Made by a program: the position numbers and the translations under genes. From Candidatus Saccharimonadota bacterium (lineage in GTDB: Bacteria; Patescibacteriota; Saccharimonadia; Saccharimonadales; UBA10212): a DNA stretch of 64,000 nt. Location: positions 13,002 through 77,001 of the forward strand of contig JALHRM010000001.1 of the NCBI GenBank assembly GCA_022841445.1. Reading direction: 5' to 3'. Below the pieces are notes generated by a model. That model had not been told where the DNA came from and ran no database searches. It saw nothing but the letters and a program-made list of their open reading frames with translations. Below are positions 1,226-33,602 of the stretch, piece after piece. Positions within the stretch are counted from its first letter, which is position 1. Each line of letters begins with the position of its first letter.

Positions 1226-2508
1226 AATACCAGAAGTTTATTTTTAAGAACTACGAGTTTGATGCGTCTTCAGGGATACTAAATCTTTACTACAGTTACG
1301 ACGATACTATTAATTTTGTAGAAACATATGTCTTTGACTTCCCGCTCAAACAATATGATGAACAAGCAGCCAAGCGGGCAATTGAGATACTATTTTTTGT
1401 AGCCGGTGTTTCCTATTACAAGACCTACTTGGCGAAGGAAATAGTTGTTGAGTCGGGTTTGATAGATGCGCCAACTGCTAGTTTTCTGGAACGAACATAT
1501 CAGCGTGGGCTTGGCGAATTTTTCTATATAAACAGACTTAGTCCAAATACGCCGGTTACTTTTCCCGTGAACAGTGAATCACTGCCTACTGTTAATCACT
1601 CATCGCGCACGGGGCTACTCATTGGCCTGGGCGGAGGCAAAGATTCTTTGGTAAGTGTTGAAATTTTAAGGAATCAGCCAAATGCAGCCACCTGGAGTCT
1701 GGGGCACAAAGAACAACTTGAACCTTTGACTAAAAAAATTGGACTTCCCCATTTTTGGGTACAAAGAACATGGGACAAAACACTACTTGAACATAATAAA
1801 TTAGGCTACAACGGGCACGTACCGATATCGGCAATCTTCGCCTGCGTTGGAACAATTGTGTCCGTTTTGTCAGGCTACCTGGATGTAGTGGTGTCTAACG
1901 AACAGTCTGCCGGCGAACCAAATTTGGTTTACCAGGGAATCGAGATTAATCATCAATATTCCAAGTCTCCTCAGTTCGAGAAAGATTACCAAGGACTGCT
2001 GCATATAAAATTCGGTGAATCAACACGTTACTACTCACTGCTCAGACCACTAAGCGAAGTGTACATCGCTAAAATTTTTTCAAAAATAGCTTTTCAAAAG
2101 TATAAGTCGCTGTTCAGTTCGTGCAACAAAGCCTTTACCCATAGCAGTAATTCAATGAGTTGGTGCGGGGATTGTCCTAAATGCGCATTTACTTTCCTAA
2201 TTTTCACGCCGTTTATCGATAAAGCCGAGCTTGAATCGATATTTGGTGGTAAAAACCTGCTGCTTTCCGAAGCACTAGAACCTACTTACCGACAACTGCT
2301 TGGTATCGAAGGAACAAAGCCTCTTGACTGCGTCGGCGAAATCAAAGAGTCTCGTTTTGCCATGAGACTTGCCCAGGAAATATACCCCGAGCTTAGTAAG
2401 TATGTGTTCGATATTCCGGATTCGTACAATTACACAAAAATGTCAGCCCACTTTATGCCTGAAGAAATATACCCCGAACTTATTGAAACAATAGATAAAA
2501 TTACTTAG
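1222..2508 (+). CDS. PP-loop ATP-pyrophosphatase-like protein, candidate MurL-type epimerase (hypothesis)
   Basis: The 428-aa ORF is translationally coupled to murD. It has a GLGGGKDS motif (SGGxDS-type PP-loop) about 145 aa in and a WCGDCPKC cysteine cluster. I could not recognise the N-terminal 140 aa. Confidence 0.4.
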   Translation: MKYQKFIFKNYEFDASSGILNLYYSYDDTINFVETYVFDFPLKQYDEQAAKRAIEILFFVAGVSYYKTYLAKEIVVESGLIDAPTASFLERTYQRGLGEFFYINRLSPNTPVTFPVNSESLPTVNHSSRTGLLIGLGGGKDSLVSVEILRNQPNAATWSLGHKEQLEPLTKKIGLPHFWVQRTWDKTLLEHNKLGYNGHVPISAIFACVGTIVSVLSGYLDVVVSNEQSAGEPNLVYQGIEINHQYSKSPQFEKDYQGLLHIKFGESTRYYSLLRPLSEVYIAKIFSKIAFQKYKSLFSSCNKAFTHSSNSMSWCGDCPKCAFTFLIFTPFIDKAELESIFGGKNLLLSEALEPTYRQLLGIEGTKPLDCVGEIKESRFAMRLAQEIYPELSKYVFDIPDSYNYTKMSAHFMPEEIYPELIETIDKIT

Positions 2509-3308
2509 CTGGTTGTGCGTTGAGCCGCACGGATGACATTTTCGAACAATGCACAGACAGTCAGCGGCCCTACCCCGCCTTTTTCAGGGGTAATGGTGAT
2601 ATCGGGTAGCTCACGAACAGCAGGGTCAACATCACCAACCAGGCCATTTTTGTCTGTCGCCACACCGGCATCGACAATAACAGCATTCTGCTTTAGCATA
2701 TCGGCTTTAATAAGGTTTGGCACACCAGTTGCCGTAACAATAACATCGGCATCTTTCAGTTCTTCATATAAATCTGTCTGACGATTGGCGACGATTGGCT
2801 TCAAACTAGATTGTCCCCACATACGAGCCAGTGGAGCACCAACAAGCCGGCCACGACCGACAATAACCAGTTTTTTGCCCTCTAAAGCAACGTTGTAGCC
2901 AGCCAGTAGCCAGATAATTGCCATTGGAGTGGCAGGGTCAAATGTAGTCTTTGCCGCTAAACCATCGACGTCTTTTTCGGCTGCCACGGCGTTAAGAACT
3001 TCGTCCGTACCCTCAGGATCAGGGAGCGGGATTTGAACAATCATGCCGTGTACTGATGCATCGTCATTCAGTTCGCGAATCTTTGCTGCGGCGTCCTTTT
3101 GATCAACAACAACTATGTCGACCTCAATACCGATGTCATTGCCATACCCTTGTTTGAGTCGCATATAGCTATCAACGACCGGATCCGGATTTGTCCGAAT
3201 GATTGCCAGTTTGGGCTGCACATTATGCGCTTGGCGGAGTGCCCGGACTGTTTTGGCCTGGCGCTCTTTAATAAAGCCGGCTAATTCCCGACCGTTCAAA
3301 ATTTTCAT
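2505..3308 (-). CDS. folD: Bifunctional methylenetetrahydrofolate dehydrogenase/cyclohydrolase FolD
   Basis: MKILNGRELAGFIKERQ.. N-terminus, a Rossmann segment VIVGRGRLVGAPLA, and GGVGPLTVCALFENV near the C-terminus. Length is 267 aa. Confidence 0.9.
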   Translation of the reverse strand: MKILNGRELAGFIKERQAKTVRALRQAHNVQPKLAIIRTNPDPVVDSYMRLKQGYGNDIGIEVDIVVVDQKDAAAKIRELNDDASVHGMIVQIPLPDPEGTDEVLNAVAAEKDVDGLAAKTTFDPATPMAIIWLLAGYNVALEGKKLVIVGRGRLVGAPLARMWGQSSLKPIVANRQTDLYEELKDADVIVTATGVPNLIKADMLKQNAVIVDAGVATDKNGLVGDVDPAVRELPDITITPEKGGVGPLTVCALFENVIRAAQRTTS

Positions 3309-9828: not shown

Positions 9829-12043
9829 CTGCAGCTCCTTTAGCAAAACTTGCTTTCGCTGCATCAAGTGCGCCGTAAGAGTTACCGAGCCGATGTTTGC
9901 CGCTGTGTGGAGTCTTGTACCAAGTGTTGTCACCTCGAAGTTCACGTATAACTGCCCACAATGCGGCAGCGTTCAAAACAAGTTGATACGGTATTTGGGT
10001 TAGAAGTAGTAGGGCGTAATGACGCAAACGAATTTTTTGCTTAAAATCGGCACCAAAATCATGAAGGAACACCGCATTAAATATCATCAACAGCGACACC
10101 GGGATGAGTGGAAGATACATCAAAATAACAAGCGCTACCGGCGCATCCAAAAACGCAATGGCCAGAAGCGATACCGGTACAAACAAACTGATGATAGCGA
10201 GCAGAACAGGCCCAAGCAAAACATAGTCAGCCAGCAGTCTTTGGCGGAAGCTTGGCAAACGTCGCCAGACACCTTTGCGCCATTCGTGGAAGAACCCCTG
10301 GTTCCAGCGCACTCGCTGTTTGAATAGTCCGCGCAGGGTATCCGGTGTTTCTTCGCGTGTAGCAAGTAACGGTTCATAGTACACGGCTGTTTTGGTTTGG
10401 AACTTAGCACTCAGCAGTACTCCGAGCGAGCAGTCTTCGGTGAGTGTATCCGGCCAACCACCAGCTCGCTTGAGTAGCGACAACCGCACAAAAACAGTGT
10501 TACCGCCAAGTGGCATAAACTGATTATCAGACTGAAACGCCATGCTGCTGTTAAACCATCGATAGTACTCAAGTACATTGTGCATCGAATACCAGGATGA
10601 ATCATAGTTAATCAACTGTACGCCACCCTGCACCACACCTGTTTTGCGATCGCGAAAGGCTGCATCAACGTGCATAAGCAGTTCAGGGTGAACAGTATCT
10701 TCGGCATCGATCACGCCAACTATACTAAAATCTTCGCGCTTGATAATTTTGAATACGTAGTTCAGCTGCTTGGGCTTACTCGGCTTAACTCCGGCAAGTA
10801 GCGGATACTCGATTACTCGAACGCGGGATTCTTTCTTTTCAACTTTGCGGGCAACTTTAAGTGTGGCTGTGTCATCGCTACAGATAACTGTCACAATGCT
10901 CATACTAGGGTGAGTCTGCTTTGCAAGCTGGCGGAGTGTATCTGCCAATACATCTGCCTCGTGTCGAGCTGGGACGATGATGCAAAATCGTTCCTTAACA
11001 CCGTTTTGTGCTGGGAATCTTAACCGGTCAACACTACCTGGCTCGCGGTACGAATAAATAGTTCGCCACACTTCCATACTTGACTGTGACAGCAAAACGA
11101 GGCTTGCGATGGCGAGTAGAACAGACACCGTCAGCACAGGGTTAAAACCAAGACCGAAACTTATGATGGCAACCATTAGCACTGACGCATAAATACTGAA
11201 TGGGACTCTTGCTTTTTGGTTAAGAGAACTTTTGCTGCTTGTGGCTTCGGCAAATGCCCACCGATCACTTACAACATAATTAAGCAGCATAATAACCGCC
11301 AAAGAAACTACATTGGCGACAAGATAATTAACCGTAAAATTGAATGCTGCGCCAAAAACAGCGAAGCTAAACTGCAAGCTGATAAGAGCAGCGAACAGAC
11401 CATAGTTTAGTAGAGTTGTAGCTCCTCGTGACAGCAAAAATTTGATTGATGCTAGTCGGCTAATCGTACGATCACGCCACGTGATGTTGCGGTTCAAAAC
11501 ATAGTTAAGATAAAACGTCATTGCCAGTTGAACAGCATTTGCTGCGAGTGGTGACCACTGCAGAAATTCTACAAGAACATACAATAGTCCCATGCCAGTG
11601 CCAAAGACACCGCCACCGATCAGGCCGAACTGCACGAATTTTTTGGATAATACCGATTGGACTCCACCAAGAACACGATTTTTTGATACGTTGCCTACAA
11701 AGTCTTTTAAGTAGTCAGGATCAGGTTCTTCTGAGGGCATGATGATCACTTCCGAAGTGTTTTTAGCATACGATCGTCCAGTTTTAATCAAAGATCCTCG
11801 GTTAAATACAGTTTTTTTGTGGAGTACAACGCGGGCGTTAGTAATATTGCTTTCAATAATTGTTTCGGCAGCCTTTGATATTGCGTCGTAGTCATGTTCG
11901 TTGCAGATAACAATAATCTCATAATCACTAAGAGGATACTTAGCAGAGGCGGCAGATCTAATCGTACGATCCAACGAGTCTTTGTCTGCCAAAACCGGTA
12001 TAAGCACGCTGATGGACTGCTTTTTTGAACTAGCCAGTGACAT
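9821..12043 (-). CDS. Multidomain glycosyltransferase: degenerate GT2 half + GtrA-like 4-TM domain + processive GT2 (D,D,D,QxxRW) + C-terminal TMs
   Basis: The N-terminus SVLIPVLADKD..IIVICNEHD is GT2-like but has SEEPD where DxD is expected. A GtrA-like segment follows (FVQFGLIGGGVF..YVLNRNITWRDR). The second GT2 has IIVPARHEADV, DAED and QRVRWNQG. Confidence 0.65.
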   Translation of the reverse strand: MSLASSKKQSISVLIPVLADKDSLDRTIRSAASAKYPLSDYEIIVICNEHDYDAISKAAETIIESNITNARVVLHKKTVFNRGSLIKTGRSYAKNTSEVIIMPSEEPDPDYLKDFVGNVSKNRVLGGVQSVLSKKFVQFGLIGGGVFGTGMGLLYVLVEFLQWSPLAANAVQLAMTFYLNYVLNRNITWRDRTISRLASIKFLLSRGATTLLNYGLFAALISLQFSFAVFGAAFNFTVNYLVANVVSLAVIMLLNYVVSDRWAFAEATSSKSSLNQKARVPFSIYASVLMVAIISFGLGFNPVLTVSVLLAIASLVLLSQSSMEVWRTIYSYREPGSVDRLRFPAQNGVKERFCIIVPARHEADVLADTLRQLAKQTHPSMSIVTVICSDDTATLKVARKVEKKESRVRVIEYPLLAGVKPSKPKQLNYVFKIIKREDFSIVGVIDAEDTVHPELLMHVDAAFRDRKTGVVQGGVQLINYDSSWYSMHNVLEYYRWFNSSMAFQSDNQFMPLGGNTVFVRLSLLKRAGGWPDTLTEDCSLGVLLSAKFQTKTAVYYEPLLATREETPDTLRGLFKQRVRWNQGFFHEWRKGVWRRLPSFRQRLLADYVLLGPVLLAIISLFVPVSLLAIAFLDAPVALVILMYLPLIPVSLLMIFNAVFLHDFGADFKQKIRLRHYALLLLTQIPYQLVLNAAALWAVIRELRGDNTWYKTPHSGKHRLGNSYGALDAAKASFAKGAADA

Positions 12044-13161
12044 TACTTGGTGTCCTCACTATCAGATGATTCAAACTTTATCCCAAACCAGGCGACAATC
12101 ATTAAACCAACTGCACCGATCCACCACTGCCACTCAACCTGTTGTATGGCGAGTAAGGACGCAATGAGCGGTTGGACTAAAAATGCCAGCACGTTGTACC
12201 TGGTGGTCACGAGTCGTCGGACTCGCGCCATAGCCGATTCGCTCTTTTTTGGCTTGTCGAGTATTAGTAGCGATGCAGCTACAGTTAGCAAGCCAAGTTC
12301 AGTCGCAAGCAAAGCAGCAGTTACTGAATCAAAATCGTTGAGCCGAACTGCACCCACATAGGTGGCGATCGTAATAACAGCTCCACTGAACGCTGCGGCA
12401 TACTGGCGCATCAGTCGTTTGAAAGGAGAAACTTTGTTAAGCTCATGTGCAACGCGGATAAACTCGACAATGTCTTTATGTGAGAGTTTAGATGTACCCG
12501 ACATGCGGTCTCGGAATGTTATTGGTACTTCGGCAACCCTGAATTGCTGTGAGATAAACTCGTTACTAAGAAATAATTGGAACCCAAACCCGCTAACCCG
12601 GGCACGGCGATATGGAATTTGGCAAAGCGCAGCCTTGGTCATCGCCTTGAATCCGCCAGTCAGTTCTGCCATATCGGTTTCTATACCGCCCACAAATCGC
12701 GCCACAAAATGTGCGATACGAGTATTAAGAATACGAATAAGTGGCCAACTGCCCGGTATCATACCGCCACTTACGTAGCGTGATCCAACGGCGATATCGT
12801 AGCCTTGGTCAATCTTCTTAAGAAGATGGGGCACTTCTGCCGGGGAATGTGACAAATCAGCATCCATCATGATTACAACATCAAATTTTAGATTCTTTCG
12901 GGCGTAGTCGAAACCGCGTCTGTATGCCGCGCCCAGTCCGTTCTTGCGACCTTGAATCAAATATAGGTTGTTATAACGCTTCTGAATCGAGCGCACAACA
13001 TCTGCCGTACCGTCAGGCGAACGGTCATCAATAACCAATACAGAAATGTGGTAATTTGTCTTTTTCGTAGCGCGAAGATTGAGTAGTTCGTCAAGAATAA
13101 GCTCAACGTTATATCGCTCGTTGTAAGTTGGGAGGGTGATTAATGCTCTTTTTGTCGCCAT
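12043..13161 (-). CDS. Polyprenol-phosphate sugar synthase (Dpm1/Ppm1-like GT2) with C-terminal TM region
   Basis: LITLPTYNERYN, VLVIDDRSPDGT and MMDADLSHSP motifs. The C-terminus has 3-4 TM helices. The stop overlaps the next start (TAATG). The start was chosen at ATG 13161 (MATKRAL..). Confidence 0.7.
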   Translation of the reverse strand: MATKRALITLPTYNERYNVELILDELLNLRATKKTNYHISVLVIDDRSPDGTADVVRSIQKRYNNLYLIQGRKNGLGAAYRRGFDYARKNLKFDVVIMMDADLSHSPAEVPHLLKKIDQGYDIAVGSRYVSGGMIPGSWPLIRILNTRIAHFVARFVGGIETDMAELTGGFKAMTKAALCQIPYRRARVSGFGFQLFLSNEFISQQFRVAEVPITFRDRMSGTSKLSHKDIVEFIRVAHELNKVSPFKRLMRQYAAAFSGAVITIATYVGAVRLNDFDSVTAALLATELGLLTVAASLLILDKPKKSESAMARVRRLVTTRYNVLAFLVQPLIASLLAIQQVEWQWWIGAVGLMIVAWFGIKFESSDSEDTK

Positions 13162-13339
13162 AATAACTTCTTTAATGAAAATTAAAAAAGGGTGCCCACC
13201 GTTTGAAGGCATACCCAAATCTAACCCAATCAATATTAACTACTATACAGTATTATTGATTATTTATCAATAGTATTTTAGACATTTATATTAATTCACC
13301 CGAAAGTCCCGTACTATGTGGCAAGGAGATACTGCATTT

Positions 13340-13912
13340 ATGAGTCGGATTGTACCGAAAGATACCGTAACAATACCCACTGATGCCGAAAAAGTGTTCG
13401 AAGGAATGATATACGAAGTCTACCAGTGGCAGCAGAAAATGTTTGACGGTAGCTATCACACGTTTGAGATGTTGAAGCGACCTGACACAATAAAAGTCAT
13501 CGCCATAAAAGACAATAAGGTTGTCATCACTGAACAGGAACAGCCCGGCCTACCGCCGTTCATTGATGTTCCCGGTGGCCGGCACGATGTTGATGGAGAA
13601 TCTGAACTTGCAGCTGCACAGCGTGAAATGCTTGAAGAAACCGGTATGACATTCGGTAATTGGCGGCTCATTGGTATTCATCAACCATTCACAAAAATTG
13701 ACTGGCTTGTGTACACATTTTTGGCTACTGACTTTATCAATCAAGTTCCTCAGCAGTTAGACGCTGGCGAAAAAATAACCACCGTCTTGATGGATTTTGA
13801 AGAAGTGAAGCGGCAAACAGCGCAACCGAAAGCACGTTATCTACCGAAAGAATTTGAATTGGTAGAAAGTCTAGACGAACTCATCCAACTACCCGAATTC
13901 AACGCTAGTTAA
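13340..13912 (+). CDS. NUDIX hydrolase
   Basis: Nudix box GGRHDVDGESELAAAQREMLEETG. AAGGAG lies 11 nt upstream of ATG 13340; the ORF track start at 13316 is also possible. Confidence 0.7.
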   Translation: MSRIVPKDTVTIPTDAEKVFEGMIYEVYQWQQKMFDGSYHTFEMLKRPDTIKVIAIKDNKVVITEQEQPGLPPFIDVPGGRHDVDGESELAAAQREMLEETGMTFGNWRLIGIHQPFTKIDWLVYTFLATDFINQVPQQLDAGEKITTVLMDFEEVKRQTAQPKARYLPKEFELVESLDELIQLPEFNAS

Positions 13913-14768
13913 GTACAATTATTAGCGCCCCGACAACGGCGAGTACTGAACCAATAGCTCGCCGCGTCATATCTTTGCGTTCTTTCAGCAGGATACTTCC
14001 TAAGATAACACTTACGATTATCTGAAGAAGAAACAGTGCACTTACAAGCGGTGCGTTGTCGGCAATTTTCAAACTCGTAAAGATTAGCGTTAGCCCTACC
14101 GAGCAAAGAATTCCAAAACCCAGGTAATGGTGCCGATGACCAGGCCACATTAAGTGCTTGAGACTTCCTATAACAGTAGGCCGCAGCAAAATAAAAATAA
14201 AGCTGTTTATGATAAATGTAATAAGTAGGTAGCTGGCCGGTTCAGCTTCTCGGTATATTACCTGGTCTGTGAGTATGCCAATTCCATATATAAATGCCGT
14301 AGCTGTTGCAAACAAGATGCCCGTTTTTGATTGATCATTAAACAAGTTTTTTCGAAAAAACACCACAAATATGGCAGCCATAATGACAAAAGCGCCAAGA
14401 CTTTCCAGCAGTGTTAAGCCAACACCAAACAGCACAACACTTGCGACCCAAGTAACAATAAGTCGTGATGTCAGCAAAATAGTATATTCGCCGACACCAA
14501 TATGCGCTAAAGCTTTTTGGCTGGTCAGCCATCCGACAAACGCCAGTGCGATATTAAGGATAAAAACTGGCAAAAAATTCTGAACTGGCGGCATATCGAA
14601 ACCAAAAATGACGTTATAAATCAGGAGTCCCAGCCCTGTGGATACCGAAAGCAGGAAGGCTGAACTATAAAAATCAAGCTTATTCTTATGGGATAATGCG
14701 ACTCTCCGTACAACATCAGATAAAGCTAGCACAGCAACACCGCTTAACGCATAAATGTACCAAGGCAT
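13905..14768 (-). CDS. EamA/DMT-family transporter
   Basis: 287 aa with about 10 TM helices in two repeated halves, as is typical of EamA-type transporters. Confidence 0.55.
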   Translation of the reverse strand: MPWYIYALSGVAVLALSDVVRRVALSHKNKLDFYSSAFLLSVSTGLGLLIYNVIFGFDMPPVQNFLPVFILNIALAFVGWLTSQKALAHIGVGEYTILLTSRLIVTWVASVVLFGVGLTLLESLGAFVIMAAIFVVFFRKNLFNDQSKTGILFATATAFIYGIGILTDQVIYREAEPASYLLITFIINSFIFILLRPTVIGSLKHLMWPGHRHHYLGFGILCSVGLTLIFTSLKIADNAPLVSALFLLQIIVSVILGSILLKERKDMTRRAIGSVLAVVGALIIVLN

Positions 14769-16323: not shown

Positions 16324-16394
16324 GTGTGAAAAATATGTGGTCGAAATTGCCAAAACAGAGGTGGTTTGCTAAAATTGCTTAGCTGTTACAGATC

Positions 16395-16471
16395 GGGCCA
16401 GTAGCTCAGCTGGTTAGAGCAGCGGCCTCTTAAGCCGCGTGTCGAGGGTTCGAGTCCCTCCTGGCCCTCCA
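16395..16471 (+). tRNA. tRNA-Lys (anticodon CTT), CCA encoded
   Basis: A 77-nt cloverleaf folded by hand. Acceptor GGGCCAG/CTGGCCC, anticodon arm GCGGC-CTCTTAA-GCCGC, and T arm GAGGG-TTCGAGT-CCCTC. Confidence 0.9.
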
Positions 16472-18057: not shown

Positions 18058-19731
18058 TTAAAGTCTCCCATAATCATGCAGGAAGAAGCTTAAATCGTAA
18101 ATATCAACTTTGCCATTACCATTAAAATCTCCGGTTCCTGGCTTGCCCCAACGGCTAAGAATAGTGCTCAAATCAAATATATTCACCTTATTATCATTAT
18201 TGAAGTCGCTGAGCCGTTTGTTGTACACCGTTACATTTATGGTCTGGTTGGTAGTATTGCCATTTATATCCGTTGATTGCGCCATAATTGTATGACCAGT
18301 GTTCGACGCTGCATTGGTGTCCCATGCATATGTGACTGAATCACTATTAGCGCTCGCTACCAAAAGATTATCGATAAATAGTCGTGTAACACTAATGCCG
18401 AACTGGTCAGTTGCACTAGCCGAAATCGTTAATGAGCCGGTAAGGGTGACGCCGTTTGCAGGGTTATTAAATACGACATTCGGAGGCGTTGTGTCCGGCA
18501 AAGTCGAAGTCGCGAGCGTACCAACAGCCGAAACATTGGGGATAGCATCAAGTGCTTCTACGGTGTAAGTGTAGCTGGTGTTGTACGCCAGTCCACTATC
18601 GCTATACATAGTTCCACTGGGTGAAGCGATCAGGACGCCGTCACGGTAAACACGATAACCGGTGGTGGCAACGTCGTCAGTGGAGGCATCCCAGGATAGA
18701 TCAATACTGAATAGTTGGCGGTCGGTGGCCTGGATGTTAGCAGGAACGCTTGGGGCGGTAGTGTCGGGGAGGGTTGAAACGGTAAAAGTGCCCATAATAG
18801 AAACATTGCCAGTTGGATCAACGGCGGCTACGGAGTAGTCATACTCCGTATCGTAGTTAAGTCCTGTGTCGCCGAATGTAGTCCCCGAAGGTGAAGCAAC
18901 GAGAACCCCGTCACGGTAAACGTTGTAGCCACTCACCATGTGATTATCAGTGGAGGCATCCCAGGATAGATCAATACTGAATAGTTGGCGGTCGGTGGCC
19001 TGGATGTTAGCAGGAACGCTTGGGGCGGTAGTGTCGGGGAGGGTTGAAAAAGGAAGGGTAGAAGATGCGGCGGAGGTGTTATTGGCAGCATCTAGCGCTG
19101 TCAAATAGTAGTTGTACGTGGTGTTGGGATTGAGTCCTGTGTCTGTATAACTCGTAGTGATGGGCGATCCCACTAACGCGCCATTACGATACACCCGGTA
19201 TCCAGTCGTACCAACTTGGTCGTACGATGGATCCCAGGTAAGACGAACTGATGTCACTGTCTGCCAGGGCGACTGGATATTCGCTGGGATGCTAGGCGGT
19301 ATCGTATCAGCGATGGTTACAAAACGAAGTGGTGTTGCAGATATTCCACCGACATTATCGTAGGCTATTGCCTGAACATTGTGGCTACCAGCAGAAGCGA
19401 AAGTGGCGTCCCAATTTATAGTGTATGGACTAGCTACATCCGTACCCCTTAAGCCTCCATCAATATAAAACTCAACCCTAGTGATTGGCTCAGCATTAGT
19501 TACATCAGCGCTAAGCGTGACAATACCACTTACCGTGGCACCATCCAATGGACTTGTTAAATCTATCTGAGGAGGAGTTGCCAATACTGTCGGCGCAAAT
19601 ATGAATATGCCCGCTCCGATAGCAAGTTCTGATAAATGAGCTAGAAACGGAATATGCCTCCGAATGCTCGAAGAGATAACCGATAAATGAACCATGCGAT
19701 GTGATAGCGCAAGCCATCTAAACATGAGCAC
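18058..19731 (-). CDS. Secreted Ig-like/4x Fn3 protein with C-terminal type-I dockerin
   Basis: Signal peptide, an Ig-like domain, four Fn3 repeats (..RLTWDPSYD.., ..DLSWDASTD.. x2), and a second Ig-like domain. The C-terminus DFNNDNKVNIFDLSTIL..GDFNGNGKVDIYDLSFFL matches the duplicated Ca-binding dockerin repeat. Confidence 0.7.
   Translation of the reverse strand: MLMFRWLALSHRMVHLSVISSSIRRHIPFLAHLSELAIGAGIFIFAPTVLATPPQIDLTSPLDGATVSGIVTLSADVTNAEPITRVEFYIDGGLRGTDVASPYTINWDATFASAGSHNVQAIAYDNVGGISATPLRFVTIADTIPPSIPANIQSPWQTVTSVRLTWDPSYDQVGTTGYRVYRNGALVGSPITTSYTDTGLNPNTTYNYYLTALDAANNTSAASSTLPFSTLPDTTAPSVPANIQATDRQLFSIDLSWDASTDNHMVSGYNVYRDGVLVASPSGTTFGDTGLNYDTEYDYSVAAVDPTGNVSIMGTFTVSTLPDTTAPSVPANIQATDRQLFSIDLSWDASTDDVATTGYRVYRDGVLIASPSGTMYSDSGLAYNTSYTYTVEALDAIPNVSAVGTLATSTLPDTTPPNVVFNNPANGVTLTGSLTISASATDQFGISVTRLFIDNLLVASANSDSVTYAWDTNAASNTGHTIMAQSTDINGNTTNQTINVTVYNKRLSDFNNDNKVNIFDLSTILSRWGKPGTGDFNGNGKVDIYDLSFFLHDYGRL
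18678..18779. repeat. Intragenic perfect direct repeat, copy 1 (102 bp)
   Basis: Identical to 18948-19049 by direct comparison. The flanking sequence of the two Fn3 units is clearly diverged. Confidence 0.9.
18948..19049. repeat. Intragenic perfect direct repeat, copy 2 (102 bp)
   Basis: Identical to 18678-18779. The offset is 270 bp, which equals 90 codons or one Fn3 unit. Confidence 0.9.
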
Positions 19732-19825
19732 CCGCCTTTGCGACTAAGAATAACATAAGCTTATCCGTTATAACAGGGGTATTTGTACTATTTTTCTGAA
19801 CAAGATTATGCGCTATCATATATGT

Positions 19826-19942
19826 ATGGAAGCAATGTTTAGCGTGGAGGCTTGGACATCACCGATAGGTGTAGGATTTTTCCTTGTCAGTCTTGGACTG
19901 TTCATTTACCTCTTATCAAGAGCCGATAACAAAAAGAAGTAG
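19826..19942 (+). CDS. Possible 38-aa single-TM peptide (MEAMFSVEAWTSPIGVGFFLVSLGLFIYLLSRADNKKK)
   Basis: ATG-initiated small ORF in an otherwise empty intergenic region. It has a hydrophobic core and a basic tail. I found no SD. Confidence 0.25.
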   Translation: MEAMFSVEAWTSPIGVGFFLVSLGLFIYLLSRADNKKK

Positions 19943-19943
19943 T

Positions 19944-19972
19944 TTGACTACTCGTAGTTATTAGTATATATT
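19944..19972 (+). promoter_or_regulatory. Sigma70-like promoter candidate (TTGACT-N17-TATATT)
   Basis: TTGACT at 19944-19949 and TATATT at 19967-19972. Confidence 0.45.
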
Positions 19973-19981
19973 CATAATCAA

Positions 19982-20041
19982 ATGTTTTACTTGGTTATAA
20001 ACACTGAATTTAAGAAGAAGGCGCTTAAAGTTCGGCCGTAG
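19982..20041 (+). promoter_or_regulatory. Candidate leader uORF (19 codons, MFYLVINTEFKKKALKVRP-stop)
   Basis: The ATG lies about 10 nt after the -10 element. The TAG stop (20039-20041) lies inside the 9-nt segment that is complementary to the terminator loop and left arm. Confidence 0.3.
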
Positions 20042-20058
20042 CGCACTTTGTTGATTAC

Positions 20059-20091
20059 AAAAAGTCCCGCGCTACGGTGCGGGACTTTTTT
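20059..20091 (+). terminator. Intrinsic terminator-like hairpin (AAAAA-GTCCCGC-loop-GCGGGAC-TTTTTT)
   Basis: A 7-bp GC-rich stem (20064-20070 pairs with 20079-20085), an 8-nt loop and a 6-T run. It ends 8 nt before ATG 20099. Confidence 0.6.
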
Positions 20092-20098
20092 ATTTAAC

Positions 20099-20875
20099 AT
20101 GGCGAGAAGCAGCATTATGGCATCACACTTACATACACCTCACTCTTTGGAGGCATTACGGGATCATTATCGGCTTTTTTCTTCACCGGGAAATGTTGAG
20201 ACTGTGATACCCGAAATTAGCGCTGCCATAACTGCAGCGATAGAAGCAGGAGCTGCAATATTACCAAAAAGTCCTGATCAACTACGAACACAAATAAGTG
20301 GGGGGCTTGGGGCGGTTATTTTCGCGCGCACTCGAAGTCAAGGTTTAAGTTTTCGTTATTATGTGGGATTAACGCCGTTAATGGAAGGAGGGGATAATAT
20401 TGCGCCTATTTATGAACGAGGTACATTAATTGCTAACCCTGATACGGCTAGGCTTTATGATCCAAGTAGACACAGTGCCTCAGATGCTATTCGACTTGTT
20501 AATAGTTTTGTTACGCCTGAATCACTAATACTGTCGACCGTGCGGTCAAGAGCCAGTTTGAGAGCAGCGCTAGGAGCAGGGATGGTGATAGCTGACCGTC
20601 TTAAAACACCTGCGCTCGATGCATTAACTTGTACAGAGGAGTGCGCGCCAGGTAACAACGACGGCACACCAGTACCTATCAACTTAGCTCCTTTAGACCA
20701 TCCTGAAATTGGACAGTGCTACGCCTGCCCTGTGAGTCAGGCGCATTGCACTGTTAACCTTTCAGATCCTTGCCGCTTGACTGTCAATAGTCTAGAGTCC
20801 GCTCTGGATGTAAACAATAAACTTATGCGGATCTATGGCTCGCCTGTTGAAGTCCGCAAACGATTTGTAGATTAA
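20099..20875 (+). CDS. Hypothetical protein with Cys-rich C-terminal region
   Basis: 258-aa ORF from ATG 20099. The track's TTG 20048 start would read through the terminator hairpin. Six Cys occur within ~50 aa (CTEEC..CYAC..C..C), and no family was recognised. Confidence 0.45.
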   Translation: MARSSIMASHLHTPHSLEALRDHYRLFSSPGNVETVIPEISAAITAAIEAGAAILPKSPDQLRTQISGGLGAVIFARTRSQGLSFRYYVGLTPLMEGGDNIAPIYERGTLIANPDTARLYDPSRHSASDAIRLVNSFVTPESLILSTVRSRASLRAALGAGMVIADRLKTPALDALTCTEECAPGNNDGTPVPINLAPLDHPEIGQCYACPVSQAHCTVNLSDPCRLTVNSLESALDVNNKLMRIYGSPVEVRKRFVD

Positions 20876-32078: not shown

Positions 32079-33602
32079 ATGAATGCAACAAATGCAAAGA
32101 TTGGCCGCCTTATACACCAAATAAGGCAAGAACGTGGTCTTACACAAGCAGAATTTGCTCGAAAACTTGGCACTAGTCAGTCTGCCGTCAATCGTATTGA
32201 GCACGGTAATCAGAACCTAAGTCTTGAGACGCTTGGCCGCATTAGCGATACTCTCAACAAACAACTTATCAGCCTTAATTCTGGTGCAGTAAATCTGCGT
32301 GTCGAAGGCGGCCGCGAACTAAAAGGTACTATTGAAGTTAAAACTTCCAAAAATGCTGCCGTTGCCTTGCTCTGTGCCAGCCTACTCAACAAAGGCACAA
32401 CCAGGCTTAAGAAAGTCGCCCGCATTGAAGAGGTCAACCGAATCATCGAAGTTCTGCAAAGTATCGGTGTACATATTCGCTGGGTGAACGAAACAGACCT
32501 GGAAATAAAACCTCCAGCTCAACTAAATCCTGAGAGCATTAATAAAGAATCTGCTAAGAAAACTCGAATAGTCATCTTGCTTGCCGGTGCACTGATGCAT
32601 GAACACGATACGTTCAAAATTCCTTATGCTGGTGGTTGCGAACTTGGCAAGCGGACAGTTCTACCCCATTTGTATGCACTTGAAGAATTTGGCACATCTG
32701 TTACGGCGAAGAGCGGACATTACCACATCGCCGTCAATCGTCACTTGCCTAAACGCCCGATTGTTTTATACGAATCAGGTGATACAACCACAGAAAACGC
32801 CATCATTGCCGCTGCACGTACGCCTGGCGAGACAATCATTAAGATGGCTAGCGCCAACTACCAAGTACAAGATCTTTGCTTTTTCCTCAAACGACTTGGG
32901 ATCAAAATCGAAGGTATAGGCACAACTACGCTTCGCATTCAAGGTGTACGGACTATCAAAAAGAACATTAGTTACTCACCAAGCGAAGACCCGGTCGAAG
33001 CCATGACGTTTATATCAGCTGCCATTACCACTAATTCAGAAATTACCATCAAACGAATACCAATTGAATTTTTGGAACTTGAACTACTGAAGCTCGAAAA
33101 AATGGGCGTCAATTACACAATGTCAAAGCCATACAAAGCCGACAATGGCAACACTGATCTGGTCAATATTACAGTGCATAAACACAATGGTTCACTAAAA
33201 GCACCCGAGGAAAAGATTTATGGTCGTCCGTACCCTGGCTTTAACATCGACCACGTTCCGTATTTTGTGCCGATTGTCGCCGTCGCTCATGGTCGCAGCC
33301 TGATACATGACTGGGTATTCGAAGACCGCGCCCTTATGTTCACTGAGATGAAAAAAATCGGCGTCAAGCTAGAATTAGCCGATCCACACCGCGTATTCAT
33401 CGAAGGTCCGACTACTTGGCGATCCGCCGATGTCGTTTGCCCGAACGGCCTCCGACCGGCAGTCATGCTGCTTATCGGCATGTTGGCAGCACCCGGCACA
33501 TCAGTGTTGCGCAATGTTTACACCATAAATAGGGGTTATGAAGACCTCGCTGCCCGTTTTAATAGTCTAGGTGCCAGTATTACTGTCCTAAACGACGTTT
33601 AG
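32079..33602 (+). CDS. murA: XRE HTH domain fused to UDP-N-acetylglucosamine 1-carboxyvinyltransferase MurA
   Basis: Aa 1-65 are IGRLIHQIRQERGLTQAEFARKLGTSQSAVNRIEHGNQN (HTH_3). MurA follows from LRVEGGRELKGTIEVKTSKNAAVALL, with the active-site loop PYAGGCELGKR (Cys retained). It is one uninterrupted ORF with no internal Met at the junction. Confidence 0.8.
   Translation: MNATNAKIGRLIHQIRQERGLTQAEFARKLGTSQSAVNRIEHGNQNLSLETLGRISDTLNKQLISLNSGAVNLRVEGGRELKGTIEVKTSKNAAVALLCASLLNKGTTRLKKVARIEEVNRIIEVLQSIGVHIRWVNETDLEIKPPAQLNPESINKESAKKTRIVILLAGALMHEHDTFKIPYAGGCELGKRTVLPHLYALEEFGTSVTAKSGHYHIAVNRHLPKRPIVLYESGDTTTENAIIAAARTPGETIIKMASANYQVQDLCFFLKRLGIKIEGIGTTTLRIQGVRTIKKNISYSPSEDPVEAMTFISAAITTNSEITIKRIPIEFLELELLKLEKMGVNYTMSKPYKADNGNTDLVNITVHKHNGSLKAPEEKIYGRPYPGFNIDHVPYFVPIVAVAHGRSLIHDWVFEDRALMFTEMKKIGVKLELADPHRVFIEGPTTWRSADVVCPNGLRPAVMLLIGMLAAPGTSVLRNVYTINRGYEDLAARFNSLGASITVLNDV

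Follow-up and report, generated by a model that had tools for sequence, protein, structure and literature searches.

A compact leader was identified in DNA of a Candidatus Saccharimonadota bacterium (assembly GCA_022841445.1, contig JALHRM010000001.1), of which one stretch of 64,000 nucleotides (nt) was analysed; this whole stretch is called the window, and coordinates given without a locus name are positions in it. The leader lies directly upstream of a gene (20117-20875, +) for a protein of 252 amino acids (aa) whose predicted fold is GNAT-like and which has four conserved Cys residues. Judged from its sequence, the element is very probably a translation-coupled transcription attenuator, that is, a ribosome-mediated, leader-peptide system. 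An earlier note on the same DNA had proposed that the position of a ribosome on a short upstream open reading frame (uORF) controls the gene through mutually exclusive RNA pairings, a proposal now supported by the conservation of the leader as a unit, by an RNAalifold consensus that contains the antiterminator, by covariation in the terminator and by the lack of an intervening promoter.

The leader begins with a promoter site, TTGACT-N17-TATATT, found by sequence reading and by a promoter scan in which it scored 10 of 12 matches. Its -35 hexamer (TTGACT, 19944-19949, +) and its -10 hexamer (TATATT, 19967-19972, +) are separated by 17 nt, and re-reading returned the coordinates of the earlier note (19944-19972). 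The -10 hexamer ends 9 nt before the ATG of the uORF, and its position predicts a transcription start at about 19979-19982, which would make the mRNA leaderless or nearly so. Direct reading also confirmed the uORF itself (19982-20041, +), with 19 codons (MFYLVINTEFKKKALKVRP) running from the ATG at 19982 to a TAG at 20039-20041. It includes three tandem Lys codons, AAG AAG AAG (K11-K13; 20012-20020, +), which are the proposed site of stalling and sensing. An ORF on the minus strand (19987-20115) was considered as the conserved feature and rejected; the frame maintained throughout the family, its stop codon and the promoter geometry fit the plus-strand uORF.

Several segments of the leader can pair in alternative ways. 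Region 1 (GAAGGCGCU, 20017-20025, +) is, by folding, the 5' strand of a helix 1:2, with its partners at 20040-20044 and 20046-20049. Region 2 (GCCGUAGCGC, 20035-20044, +) is the 5' strand of the antiterminator, which has a consensus of 10 base pairs (bp), and it holds both the Pro codon and the UAG stop of the uORF. A variable linker follows (20045-20063, +), the least conserved part of the leader; its U-rich 5' part contributes to two helices, as the outer 3' strand in 1:2 and as an extension in 2:3, and it ends in an A5 tract. Region 3 (GCGCUACGGU, 20069-20078, +), the 3' strand of the antiterminator, spans the upper 5' arm of the terminator, its loop and the first 2 nt of its 3' arm. The intrinsic terminator (20064-20091, +) has the hairpin and T6 run described in the earlier note, but folding shows a longer stem than had been thought, with 9 bp (20064-20072 with 20077-20085), a UNCG-type tetraloop and an A/U extension. 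Its layout is A5 (20059-20063), GUCCCGCGC (20064-20072), the UACG loop (20073-20076), GUGCGGGAC (20077-20085) and U6 (20086-20091). A terminator scan missed the hairpin at 20059-20091, having counted the A/U extension as stem and found too few T's left in the tail, and terminators with an A-tract and a T-tract may be overlooked systematically by that scan.

The complementarity noticed earlier is exact: CCGTAGCGC (20036-20044) is the perfect reverse complement of GCGCTACGG (20069-20077) on direct reading, and the match grows to 10 bp when G20035·U20078 is counted. A perfect complement of at least 9 nt between the 77 nt upstream and the 5' half of the terminator arose in 0.17% of shuffles, and in 0.44% of cases when the same test was made on real 77-nt windows of this sequence. 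The match is thus improbable by chance yet not decisive alone, and it is conservation that settles its reality.

The start of the regulated gene was placed at ATG 20117, 25 nt past the T-run of the terminator, rather than at ATG 20099 as first thought, because the homologues (P0001-P0003) are 252 aa long and ATG 20099 is not conserved in the related loci L001 or L007. No promoter-like site was found in the 25 nt between the T-run and ATG 20117; with no room for a promoter there, expression of the gene requires read-through. The protein had been taken for an orphan, but an exhaustive search with a hidden Markov model (HMM) found remote members (P0004-P0012) that establish a small family. It has no Pfam or NCBIfam match. 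An AlphaFold (AF2) model reached a predicted local distance difference test score (pLDDT) of 83.9, and its top PDB fold matches, all of them GNAT acetyltransferases, are weak (E about 2e-3, template modelling (TM) score 0.3-0.55).

Alternative helices of the leader RNA

The antiterminator helix 2:3 and the terminator compete for 20069-20078. Folding, which the earlier note had suggested as a check, recovered helices 2:3 and 3:4 as mutually exclusive structures and gave 2:3 in the nascent RNA. The terminator has an energy of -18.1 kcal/mol for its core and -23.4 kcal/mol with the A/U extension, the 2:3 antiterminator hairpin (20036-20077) has -18.5 kcal/mol, and helix 1:2 in the window has between -7.4 and -9.1 kcal/mol (about -9), according to the segment that was folded. 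For a nascent RNA ending at 20077, the minimum-free-energy fold is 2:3. For the full-length leader it is 1:2 plus 3:4, at -33.8 kcal/mol versus -28.7 kcal/mol with 2:3 forced, and the fold of the whole leader has a z-score of -4.4 against shuffles. Coexistence of helix 2:3 and the lower terminator stem as a pseudoknot is implausible on steric grounds, because a loop of 0-1 nt would have to span 10-11 bp.

Comparison of homologous leaders, also suggested in the earlier note, revealed a covarying terminator stem and, in the divergent lineages L012 and L013, a helix 2:3 that is kept with different bases. In an alignment of 14 sequences (A5), the RNAalifold consensus is the 2:3 antiterminator with 10 pairs, extended to 11 in most lineages other than that of the window. 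The lower stem of the terminator is paired in 92.9% of alignment cells, and three of its pairs have changed on both sides (A-U/U-A, G-C/C-G and C-G/U-A). The upper stem is badly paired in many lineages though GCGCUACGG is invariant, and this invariance appears better explained by pairing with region 2 than by the terminator. When the whole 1:2 plus 3:4 structure was considered, none of 500 shuffles matched its percentage of paired cells and one of 500 matched its covariation score; sliding the pairing partners of this conformer worsened every measure. Each of the 14 aligned leaders has a helix 1:2 (-6.4 to -13.8 kcal/mol). The Lys codons make up its 5' strand, its 3' strand consists of the end of region 2 plus the U-rich stretch that follows, and the cognate strands form a more stable helix than permuted strands (p = 0.03).

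Conservation of the leader unit

The earlier note had let its case hang on conservation in related genomes, and the uORF and its complementary segments proved to be kept as a unit across 16 lineages. Among the closest relatives, L001-L006, with 78% protein identity, and L007, with 69%, have the leader in syntenic loci. Nucleotide identity to L001 and L007 is 90-91% from the Lys codons through the T-run; at third positions of conserved codons in the adjacent gene, 67% are identical in L001 and 47% in L007. The -35 and -10 hexamers are unchanged in L001, while the 17-nt spacer has changed at most positions and kept its length. Such drift of a spacer between fixed hexamers is the usual signature expected of a working promoter. 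Between the window and L001 the uORF has four synonymous third-position changes and three amino-acid changes, and the 3' arm of the terminator varies among close relatives (GUGC to GCGUA) with pairing preserved. Regions 2 and 3 are unchanged throughout the clade of the window.

Across the 16 lineages the uORF remains open for 18-22 codons (15 in L013) and ends in TAG, and the equivalents of the -35 hexamer in other lineages are TTGCAT, TTGCAA or TTGACA. In every one of them, 6-10 nt separate the end of an upstream TAnnnT box from the uORF ATG. The near-leaderless uORF had been regarded as a weakness of the model; conservation of this short distance in all lineages removes the objection, and a start codon at the predicted transcription start is here a designed feature rather than an annotation problem. 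Leaderless translation also seems common in this organism, judging from the long ORFs of the window, 10 of 33 of which have a TAnnnT box 5-10 nt before the start (background 9.9%, P about 0.001). Examples with a leaderless appearance are 2505-3308(-), 12043-13233(-), 13905-14768(-) and 32079-33602(+). A Shine-Dalgarno-like motif precedes only 13 of the 33.

The unit is retained upstream of homologues down to about 31% protein identity. In L011 (P0004, 32% identity), the -10 box lies 10 nt before the ATG, the uORF reads MRTNVYISTNLVVKKSLKLRP followed by a stop, regions 2 and 3 are again unchanged, with CGGCCGUAGCGC and GCGCUACGG the same as in the window, and the lower stem of the terminator is different (GCCCC/GGGGC). 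In L013 (P0006, 31% identity), the -10 box lies 8 nt before the ATG, the uORF (MYYLVINNTKKKLLP) ends in UAG, and the terminator is CCCCGC-UCCG-GCGGGG followed by a U-run. Region 2 of this leader (GCCAGAGC) stands directly 3' of the stop codon and pairs with GCUCCGGC in the upper stem and loop of the terminator; both regions differ in sequence from those of the window yet are complementary at seven of eight positions. The L013 leader was recovered at 29.4 bits (E 1.6e-5) by covariance model R1, which had not been trained on it. In L012 (P0005, 30% identity), a leaderless 19-codon uORF is kept together with the hairpin of CCGUAGU-A-GCA with UGC-ACUACGG, in which the C42-G71 pair of helix 2:3 of the window is replaced by U-A. 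A predicted fold in L012 (522-662) joins the uORF start (UGUACCA) to the start of the main gene (UGGUACA), which suggests that control may be translational rather than transcriptional there.

Some searches marked the limits of the family. AT-rich distant homologues (L015, L085, L086 and L087) have neither the leader nor a T-box, a search with model R1 found no second copy of the leader in the 64-kb window, and a scan of GTDB genomes with the protein alignment gave no confirmed match. The sole match of a 25-nt leader pattern in the GTDB scan (L008 1937-1961, -) was dismissed as chance, having no uORF or terminator. It sits in the C-terminal helix-turn-helix of a gene for a sigma-54-dependent regulator in a Dethiobacter metagenome-assembled genome.

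Metagenome contigs were scanned with the pattern CGGCCGTAGCGC-N15-40-GCGCTACGG. This gave 67 loci, of which 14 (11 distinct leader sequences) proved genuine, with model R1 scores of 63 bits or more; the other 53 were rejected as chance matches in GC-rich DNA without uORF or T-run. Invariance of regions 2 and 3 in these 14 pattern-derived loci follows from the design of the search. Their uORFs, each closed by a stop codon, are MATFLPQFDSKKKSTKLRP, MVICHNLFDSKKKSTKLRP, MLIIIPAITSSKKQNVKLRP, MASFITHPETKKKSLKLRP, MLYAVHTNSIKKSETKLRP, MIVTANGFTTKKRSKLRP, MSTNYSF[IL]VNKKESSKLRP, MLYAYRQFDSSKKQGLKLRP, MHMVIVFTDFSKKSTKLRP and MAYPAPQSDPKKKSTKLRP. They have 18-22 codons, mostly 19 or 20, with unalignable N-termini and the tail KK..K[LVI]RP-UAG, and in each leader the -10 TAnnnT box ends 6-10 nt before the ATG.

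The leader directly precedes at least seven unrelated gene families. Behind the metagenome leaders stand genes for an ArgE/DapE-family M20 deacylase, a GNAT-like family of about 325 aa (with an M23 peptidase next in one locus), a GNAT weakly similar to the beta-lysine acetyltransferase AblB, a 102-aa protein followed by MurD, a HAD hydrolase, the gamma-glutamylamine cyclotransferase GGACT followed by EutB, and a 98-aa protein. Homology of these downstream genes to the window protein was rejected by hmmsearch and hhalign. The occurrence of one leader family in front of such different genes suggests a ribosome-directed lysine-starvation regulon.

The proposed signal and its rivals

Taken as a whole, the locus is best explained as a leaderless leader-peptide transcription attenuator responsive to lysine-tRNA, a reading to which we give a probability of about 0.6 from the sequence data. 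Transcription would begin at the uORF AUG or no more than about 3 nt away from it, and the 5' end of the RNA would take up a ribosome. Under normal supply this ribosome would reach the Pro-UAG end of the 19-codon ORF and linger there. A C-terminal Pro slows translation termination, and slow termination at Pro-UAG would hold the ribosome on region 2 while polymerase makes the roughly 50 nt to the T-run. By the standard footprint, a ribosome reaches about 12 nt past the first nucleotide of its A site in the 3' direction. When UAG occupies that site, the ribosome should cover the RNA to about 20051 and mask region 2 together with the 3' strand of helix 1:2; region 3 would then pair with region 4, the terminator would form and transcription would end at 20091. 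A ribosome stalled with K11-K13 in the A site should have its edge at about 20024-20030, leaving helix 1:2 melted and region 2 free. Free region 2 would pair with region 3 (10 bp) before region 4 is made, no terminator would form and the GNAT-like gene would be transcribed. The distances from ribosome to regions are the same in L013 as in the window.

The evidence for lysine begins with the uORF. Apart from the tail, its only conserved residues are two or three consecutive Lys. KK or KKK, present in 15 of 16 lineages, stands within the 5' strand of helix 1:2, its distance from region 2 being fixed, and the tandem codons are AAG in 38 of 40 cases across the 16 lineages, versus a background of 546 AAA and 286 AAG (34% AAG) in the genes of the window. 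The earlier note had stressed the Arg-Pro-stop end; Pro-UAG is indeed conserved, but the better candidate for the sensor is the tandem AAG codons just upstream.

A parallel is provided by the homologue P0009 (hmmsearch E 4.9e-9), which heads an operon with an M20 peptidase and the lysine-tRNA ligase gene lysS (NF001756, 514 bits versus a cutoff of 468). The operon is preceded by a promoter, a T-box leader and a terminator. The T-box match (RF00230, 71.5 bits, E 1e-15) is below the listed Rfam gathering score of 93, and in the T-box alignment its specifier reads AAG followed by the conserved purine (A), a Lys specifier. This divergent T-box leader with its AAG specifier occurs at L009 2903-3216 and L010 2342-2655, before genes for the GNAT-like homologue, the M20 peptidase, LysS and NIF3. 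The 3' arm of its terminator (AGGAGG) is also the Shine-Dalgarno sequence of the first gene of the operon. Among the genes behind the leader family, the ArgE/DapE/LysK-type and DoeB-like deacylases and GGACT could be candidates to free lysine from conjugates, going by the known substrates of such enzymes; GGACT frees lysine from gamma-glutamyl-epsilon-lysine. The link of the regulated genes to lysine metabolism, to which the AblB-like (beta-lysine) GNAT also belongs, appears indirect. We lean, if only slightly, towards a shortage of charged tRNA-Lys reading AAG as the signal that is sensed.

A number of observations weigh against this reading. A ribosome stalled at a fourth conserved Lys (K16) would mask region 2, the opposite of what a pure Lys sensor needs, and conservation of the K[LVI]RP-UAG peptide exceeds the needs of a classical attenuator, which hints at an effect of the nascent chain. 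None of the regulated genes belongs to lysine biosynthesis, and weak matches are the basis of their assigned functions; the T-box of the P0009 operon may be there for lysS rather than for the homologue. Helix 2:3 is much more stable than helix 1:2, so energies cannot predict whether the untranslated default is on or off. Covariation in helix 2:3 is limited to the two divergent lineages L012 and L013, and L012 has the 2:3 hairpin with no T-run terminator, which all other lineages possess. For helix 1:2, the alignment columns read in a fixed register show no compensatory change, leaving the energy-based p of 0.03, a weak signal, in its favour; the register of this helix shifts between lineages, so that counting by fixed columns reveals no compensation.

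The rival that survives best, though we consider it unlikely, is a nascent-peptide sensor in which the tail KK..K[LVI]RP-UAG arrests the ribosome at termination or at +x+ motifs, triggered by a small molecule, by an antibiotic or by the activity of RF1, much as in TnaC or the Erm and Cat leaders. The duration of arrest over region 2 would set the outcome, and the Lys residues would act in the tunnel rather than as codons. The last eight or nine residues of the uORF are conserved as amino acids while the N-termini are unalignable: K[LVI]RP-UAG is found in 14 lineages and LLP-UAG in L013, and the motif is absent in L012. Pro-UAG is present in 15 of 16 lineages, including L013, where the UAG lies outside the pairing strand. 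UAG closes 16 of 16 leaders versus 11 of 33 window genes, and genes of the GNAT and APH families are among the neighbours and targets. An arrest peptide would also fit with the Arg-Pro-stop end of TnaC, with the slow termination caused by a C-terminal Pro and with the macrolide arrest motif K/R-x-K/R. However, arrest would leave the near-exclusive choice of AAG and the Lys T-box on a homologue unexplained, and the KKQ, KKS or KKE of many leaders do not count as +x+ motifs. The tail also serves as region 2 and as the helix 1:2 loop, which accounts for part of its conservation; arrest confined to the stop codon would make termination permanent unless relieved, and the regulated genes are not typical resistance genes.

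The lysine-tRNA reading and arrest could also be combined in a two-checkpoint attenuator, an extension that we offer tentatively, as a speculation. A K[LVI]RP-UAG arrest peptide would park the ribosome on the antiterminator strand, and the AAG run, a metabolite or RF1-dependent relief would release it. Such a system would define a hitherto unseen, ribosome-directed regulon for scavenging lysine (deacylases, GGACT, GNATs and cell-wall enzymes) in uncultivated, probably auxotrophic bacteria, and would replace the L-box or T-box in some lineages. The conserved termination tail is the feature of the leader most likely to hide something new.

It is improbable that the leader is a general sensor of translation coupling, which would permit read-through whenever the uORF is not finished in time, whether from any stall, poor leaderless initiation or a shortage of ribosomes, with no specific amino acid involved. 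In its favour, helix 2:3 greatly exceeds 1:2 in stability and is what the nascent RNA adopts at minimum free energy before region 4 is made; if the ribosome were missing or came late, antitermination should therefore prevail. In addition, every lineage has a leaderless uORF, and initiation on leaderless mRNAs varies with conditions (PMC9031893). Such a sensor leaves unexplained the tandem AAG codons at their fixed distance, helix 1:2 and the parallel with the Lys T-box.

A riboswitch or protein-binding RNA, with a metabolite or regulatory protein as the ligand of the invariant GGCCGUAGCGC/GCGCUACGGCC helix and with an incidental uORF, seems very improbable. It could account for two strands that are invariant across very divergent lineages, beyond the needs of pairing, and for the retention of the hairpin without a terminator in L012, but no Rfam family matches at its threshold, the helix is a plain perfect duplex with no conserved internal loops or junctions, L013 makes the same pairing with a different sequence, and every lineage, though the N-termini cannot be aligned, keeps an open frame of about 19 codons from the transcription start onwards. 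Equally hard to credit is an absence of regulation, with the uORF an independent small gene or small RNA, or the hairpin merely the end of an upstream 44-codon gene, and the downstream gene expressed by leakage or from an unseen promoter: the 44-codon ORF does end 1 nt before the -35 box without a terminator of its own, and the hairpin is symmetric (A-tract and T-tract) like a bidirectional terminator, with R1 matches on the minus strand as well, but only 25 nt without a promoter-like site separate the T-run from the start codon, the leader stands directly before its at least seven unrelated gene families, the antiterminator complementarity is conserved and is the RNAalifold consensus, and the stop codon always lies in or adjoins region 2.

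Neighbouring genes and known systems

The 44-codon ORF upstream of the leader (19808-19942, +; MRYHICMEAMFSVEAWTSPIGVGFFLVSLGLFIYLLSRADNKKK) encodes a small membrane protein and has no family match. The protein is conserved in L001 and L003, third positions are 68% identical to those of L001 and the ORF is a called gene in L003, so that it looks like a real small gene. The terminator of the leader probably also ends its transcript. In transcripts reading through from this gene, the uORF would be internal and without a Shine-Dalgarno sequence, and the RNA would probably fold as 1:2 plus 3:4 and terminate. Farther upstream lies a gene for a secreted Big_7/FN3/dockerin protein (18058-19731, -), and because it is on the minus strand the region between is a divergent promoter region. 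That protein contains a near-exact internal duplication, with LPDTTAPSVPANIQATDRQLFSIDLSWDASTD present twice, and the repeat also appears in overlapping spurious ORFs. A tRNA-Lys(CUU) gene (16395-16471, +), for the tRNA that reads the AAG codons of the leader, lies 3.5 kb upstream of it, preceded at 16347-16375 by a promoter-like TTGCCA-N17-TAAAAT with TG. LCP-family and APH-family genes follow the regulated gene. In other loci, genes of the GNAT-like Cys-rich family are repeatedly followed by one for an AstE/AspA-type (DoeB-like) deacylase, forming a conserved pair (L013 3001-4705; L015 955-2990; L085 78-1753; L086 1776-3718). In L013, MurD and Glu racemase genes come after the deacylase; the window copy is without this partner.

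At gathering thresholds, Rfam models found six tRNAs and nothing else in the whole window, and L-box and T-box covariance models did not match the window leader even at E up to 10. A permissive Rfam scan gave full-length matches to Thr_leader (RF00506, 30.0 bits versus a gathering score of 55) and Leu_leader (RF00512, 27.5 versus 50). Membership in either family was rejected, the matches being below threshold and driven by the terminator, and the minus strand also scoring 18-21 bits. The leader family is undescribed, while its apparent mechanism, trp-type attenuation, is known. To our knowledge, leader-peptide attenuation has been documented for few amino acids, mostly in cultured Proteobacteria and Actinobacteria, and the bacteria examined to date use the L-box riboswitch or T-boxes for lysine. 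No description of a lysine leader-peptide attenuator was found in the literature, and a survey of Actinobacteria lists none (PMC1262725). If the lysine-tRNA reading is true, the family would represent a new amino-acid specificity for leader-peptide attenuation and a second 'ribulon' after the mycobacterial Cys short ORFs. It would also provide a functional handle on uncharacterised families, such as the GNAT-like Cys-rich protein and its partner AstE/AspA deacylase, among others, with induction predicted under lysyl-tRNA shortage. The family is compact and easily tested with reporters.

The leader resembles the enterobacterial attenuators (trpL, hisL, leuL, thrL, pheL and ilvL) in its short ORF with tandem codons in region 1, its predicted, mutually exclusive 1:2, 2:3 and 3:4 helices, its terminator before the first gene and the proposed masking of region 2 by a ribosome at the stop codon. 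It differs from them in the candidate amino acid, lysine, in its leaderless uORF, in the conserved K[LVI]RP-UAG tail and in its targets, which are GNAT, deacylase, MurD and GGACT genes rather than a biosynthetic operon. TnaC blocks the loading of Rho and needs free tryptophan as well as the conserved residues W12 and D16. The window leader shares with TnaC an Arg-Pro-stop end and, as TnaC is understood, a control of downstream termination by occupancy of the stop codon that is here proposed, but here the terminator is intrinsic, not a rut region, and parking of the ribosome would favour termination. Term-seq in Firmicutes reportedly found antibiotic-responsive uORF attenuators of resistance genes. 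These are said to share the short uORF, the antiterminator and terminator, and read-through upon stalling; in the present family, however, the targets are not recognised resistance genes, and the AAG run and the Lys T-box point to amino-acid sensing. The Lys T-box of L009 and L010 has the same proposed input (charging of tRNA-Lys reading AAG), the same output (antitermination) and the same downstream gene family, but its RNA binds tRNA directly with no ribosome involved, and the window leader is without T-box features.

In the ilvBNC, leuA and trp attenuators of Corynebacterium, a leader peptide on a leaderless transcript is followed by hairpins and a terminator (PMC11857589, PMC5784534). A predicted leaderless leader peptide, hairpins and a terminator are found here too. 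The Corynebacterium leaders concern other amino acids, sequences and phyla and have no conserved Pro-stop tail, and, unlike in the window family, there is no evidence that a single leader family serves many unrelated genes. The closest functional parallel is the mycobacterial Cys 'ribulon', in which leaderless short ORFs with polycysteine runs precede several operons and ribosome pausing controls a regulon (bioRxiv 10.1101/834739). Both systems have leaderless ORFs, sensory there and proposed to be so here, with runs of one codon type in front of several different operons. In the Cys ribulon the stalled ribosome opens a structure that hides a ribosome-binding site and control is translational, whereas in the leader described here the choice would lie between terminator and antiterminator, and control would be transcriptional.

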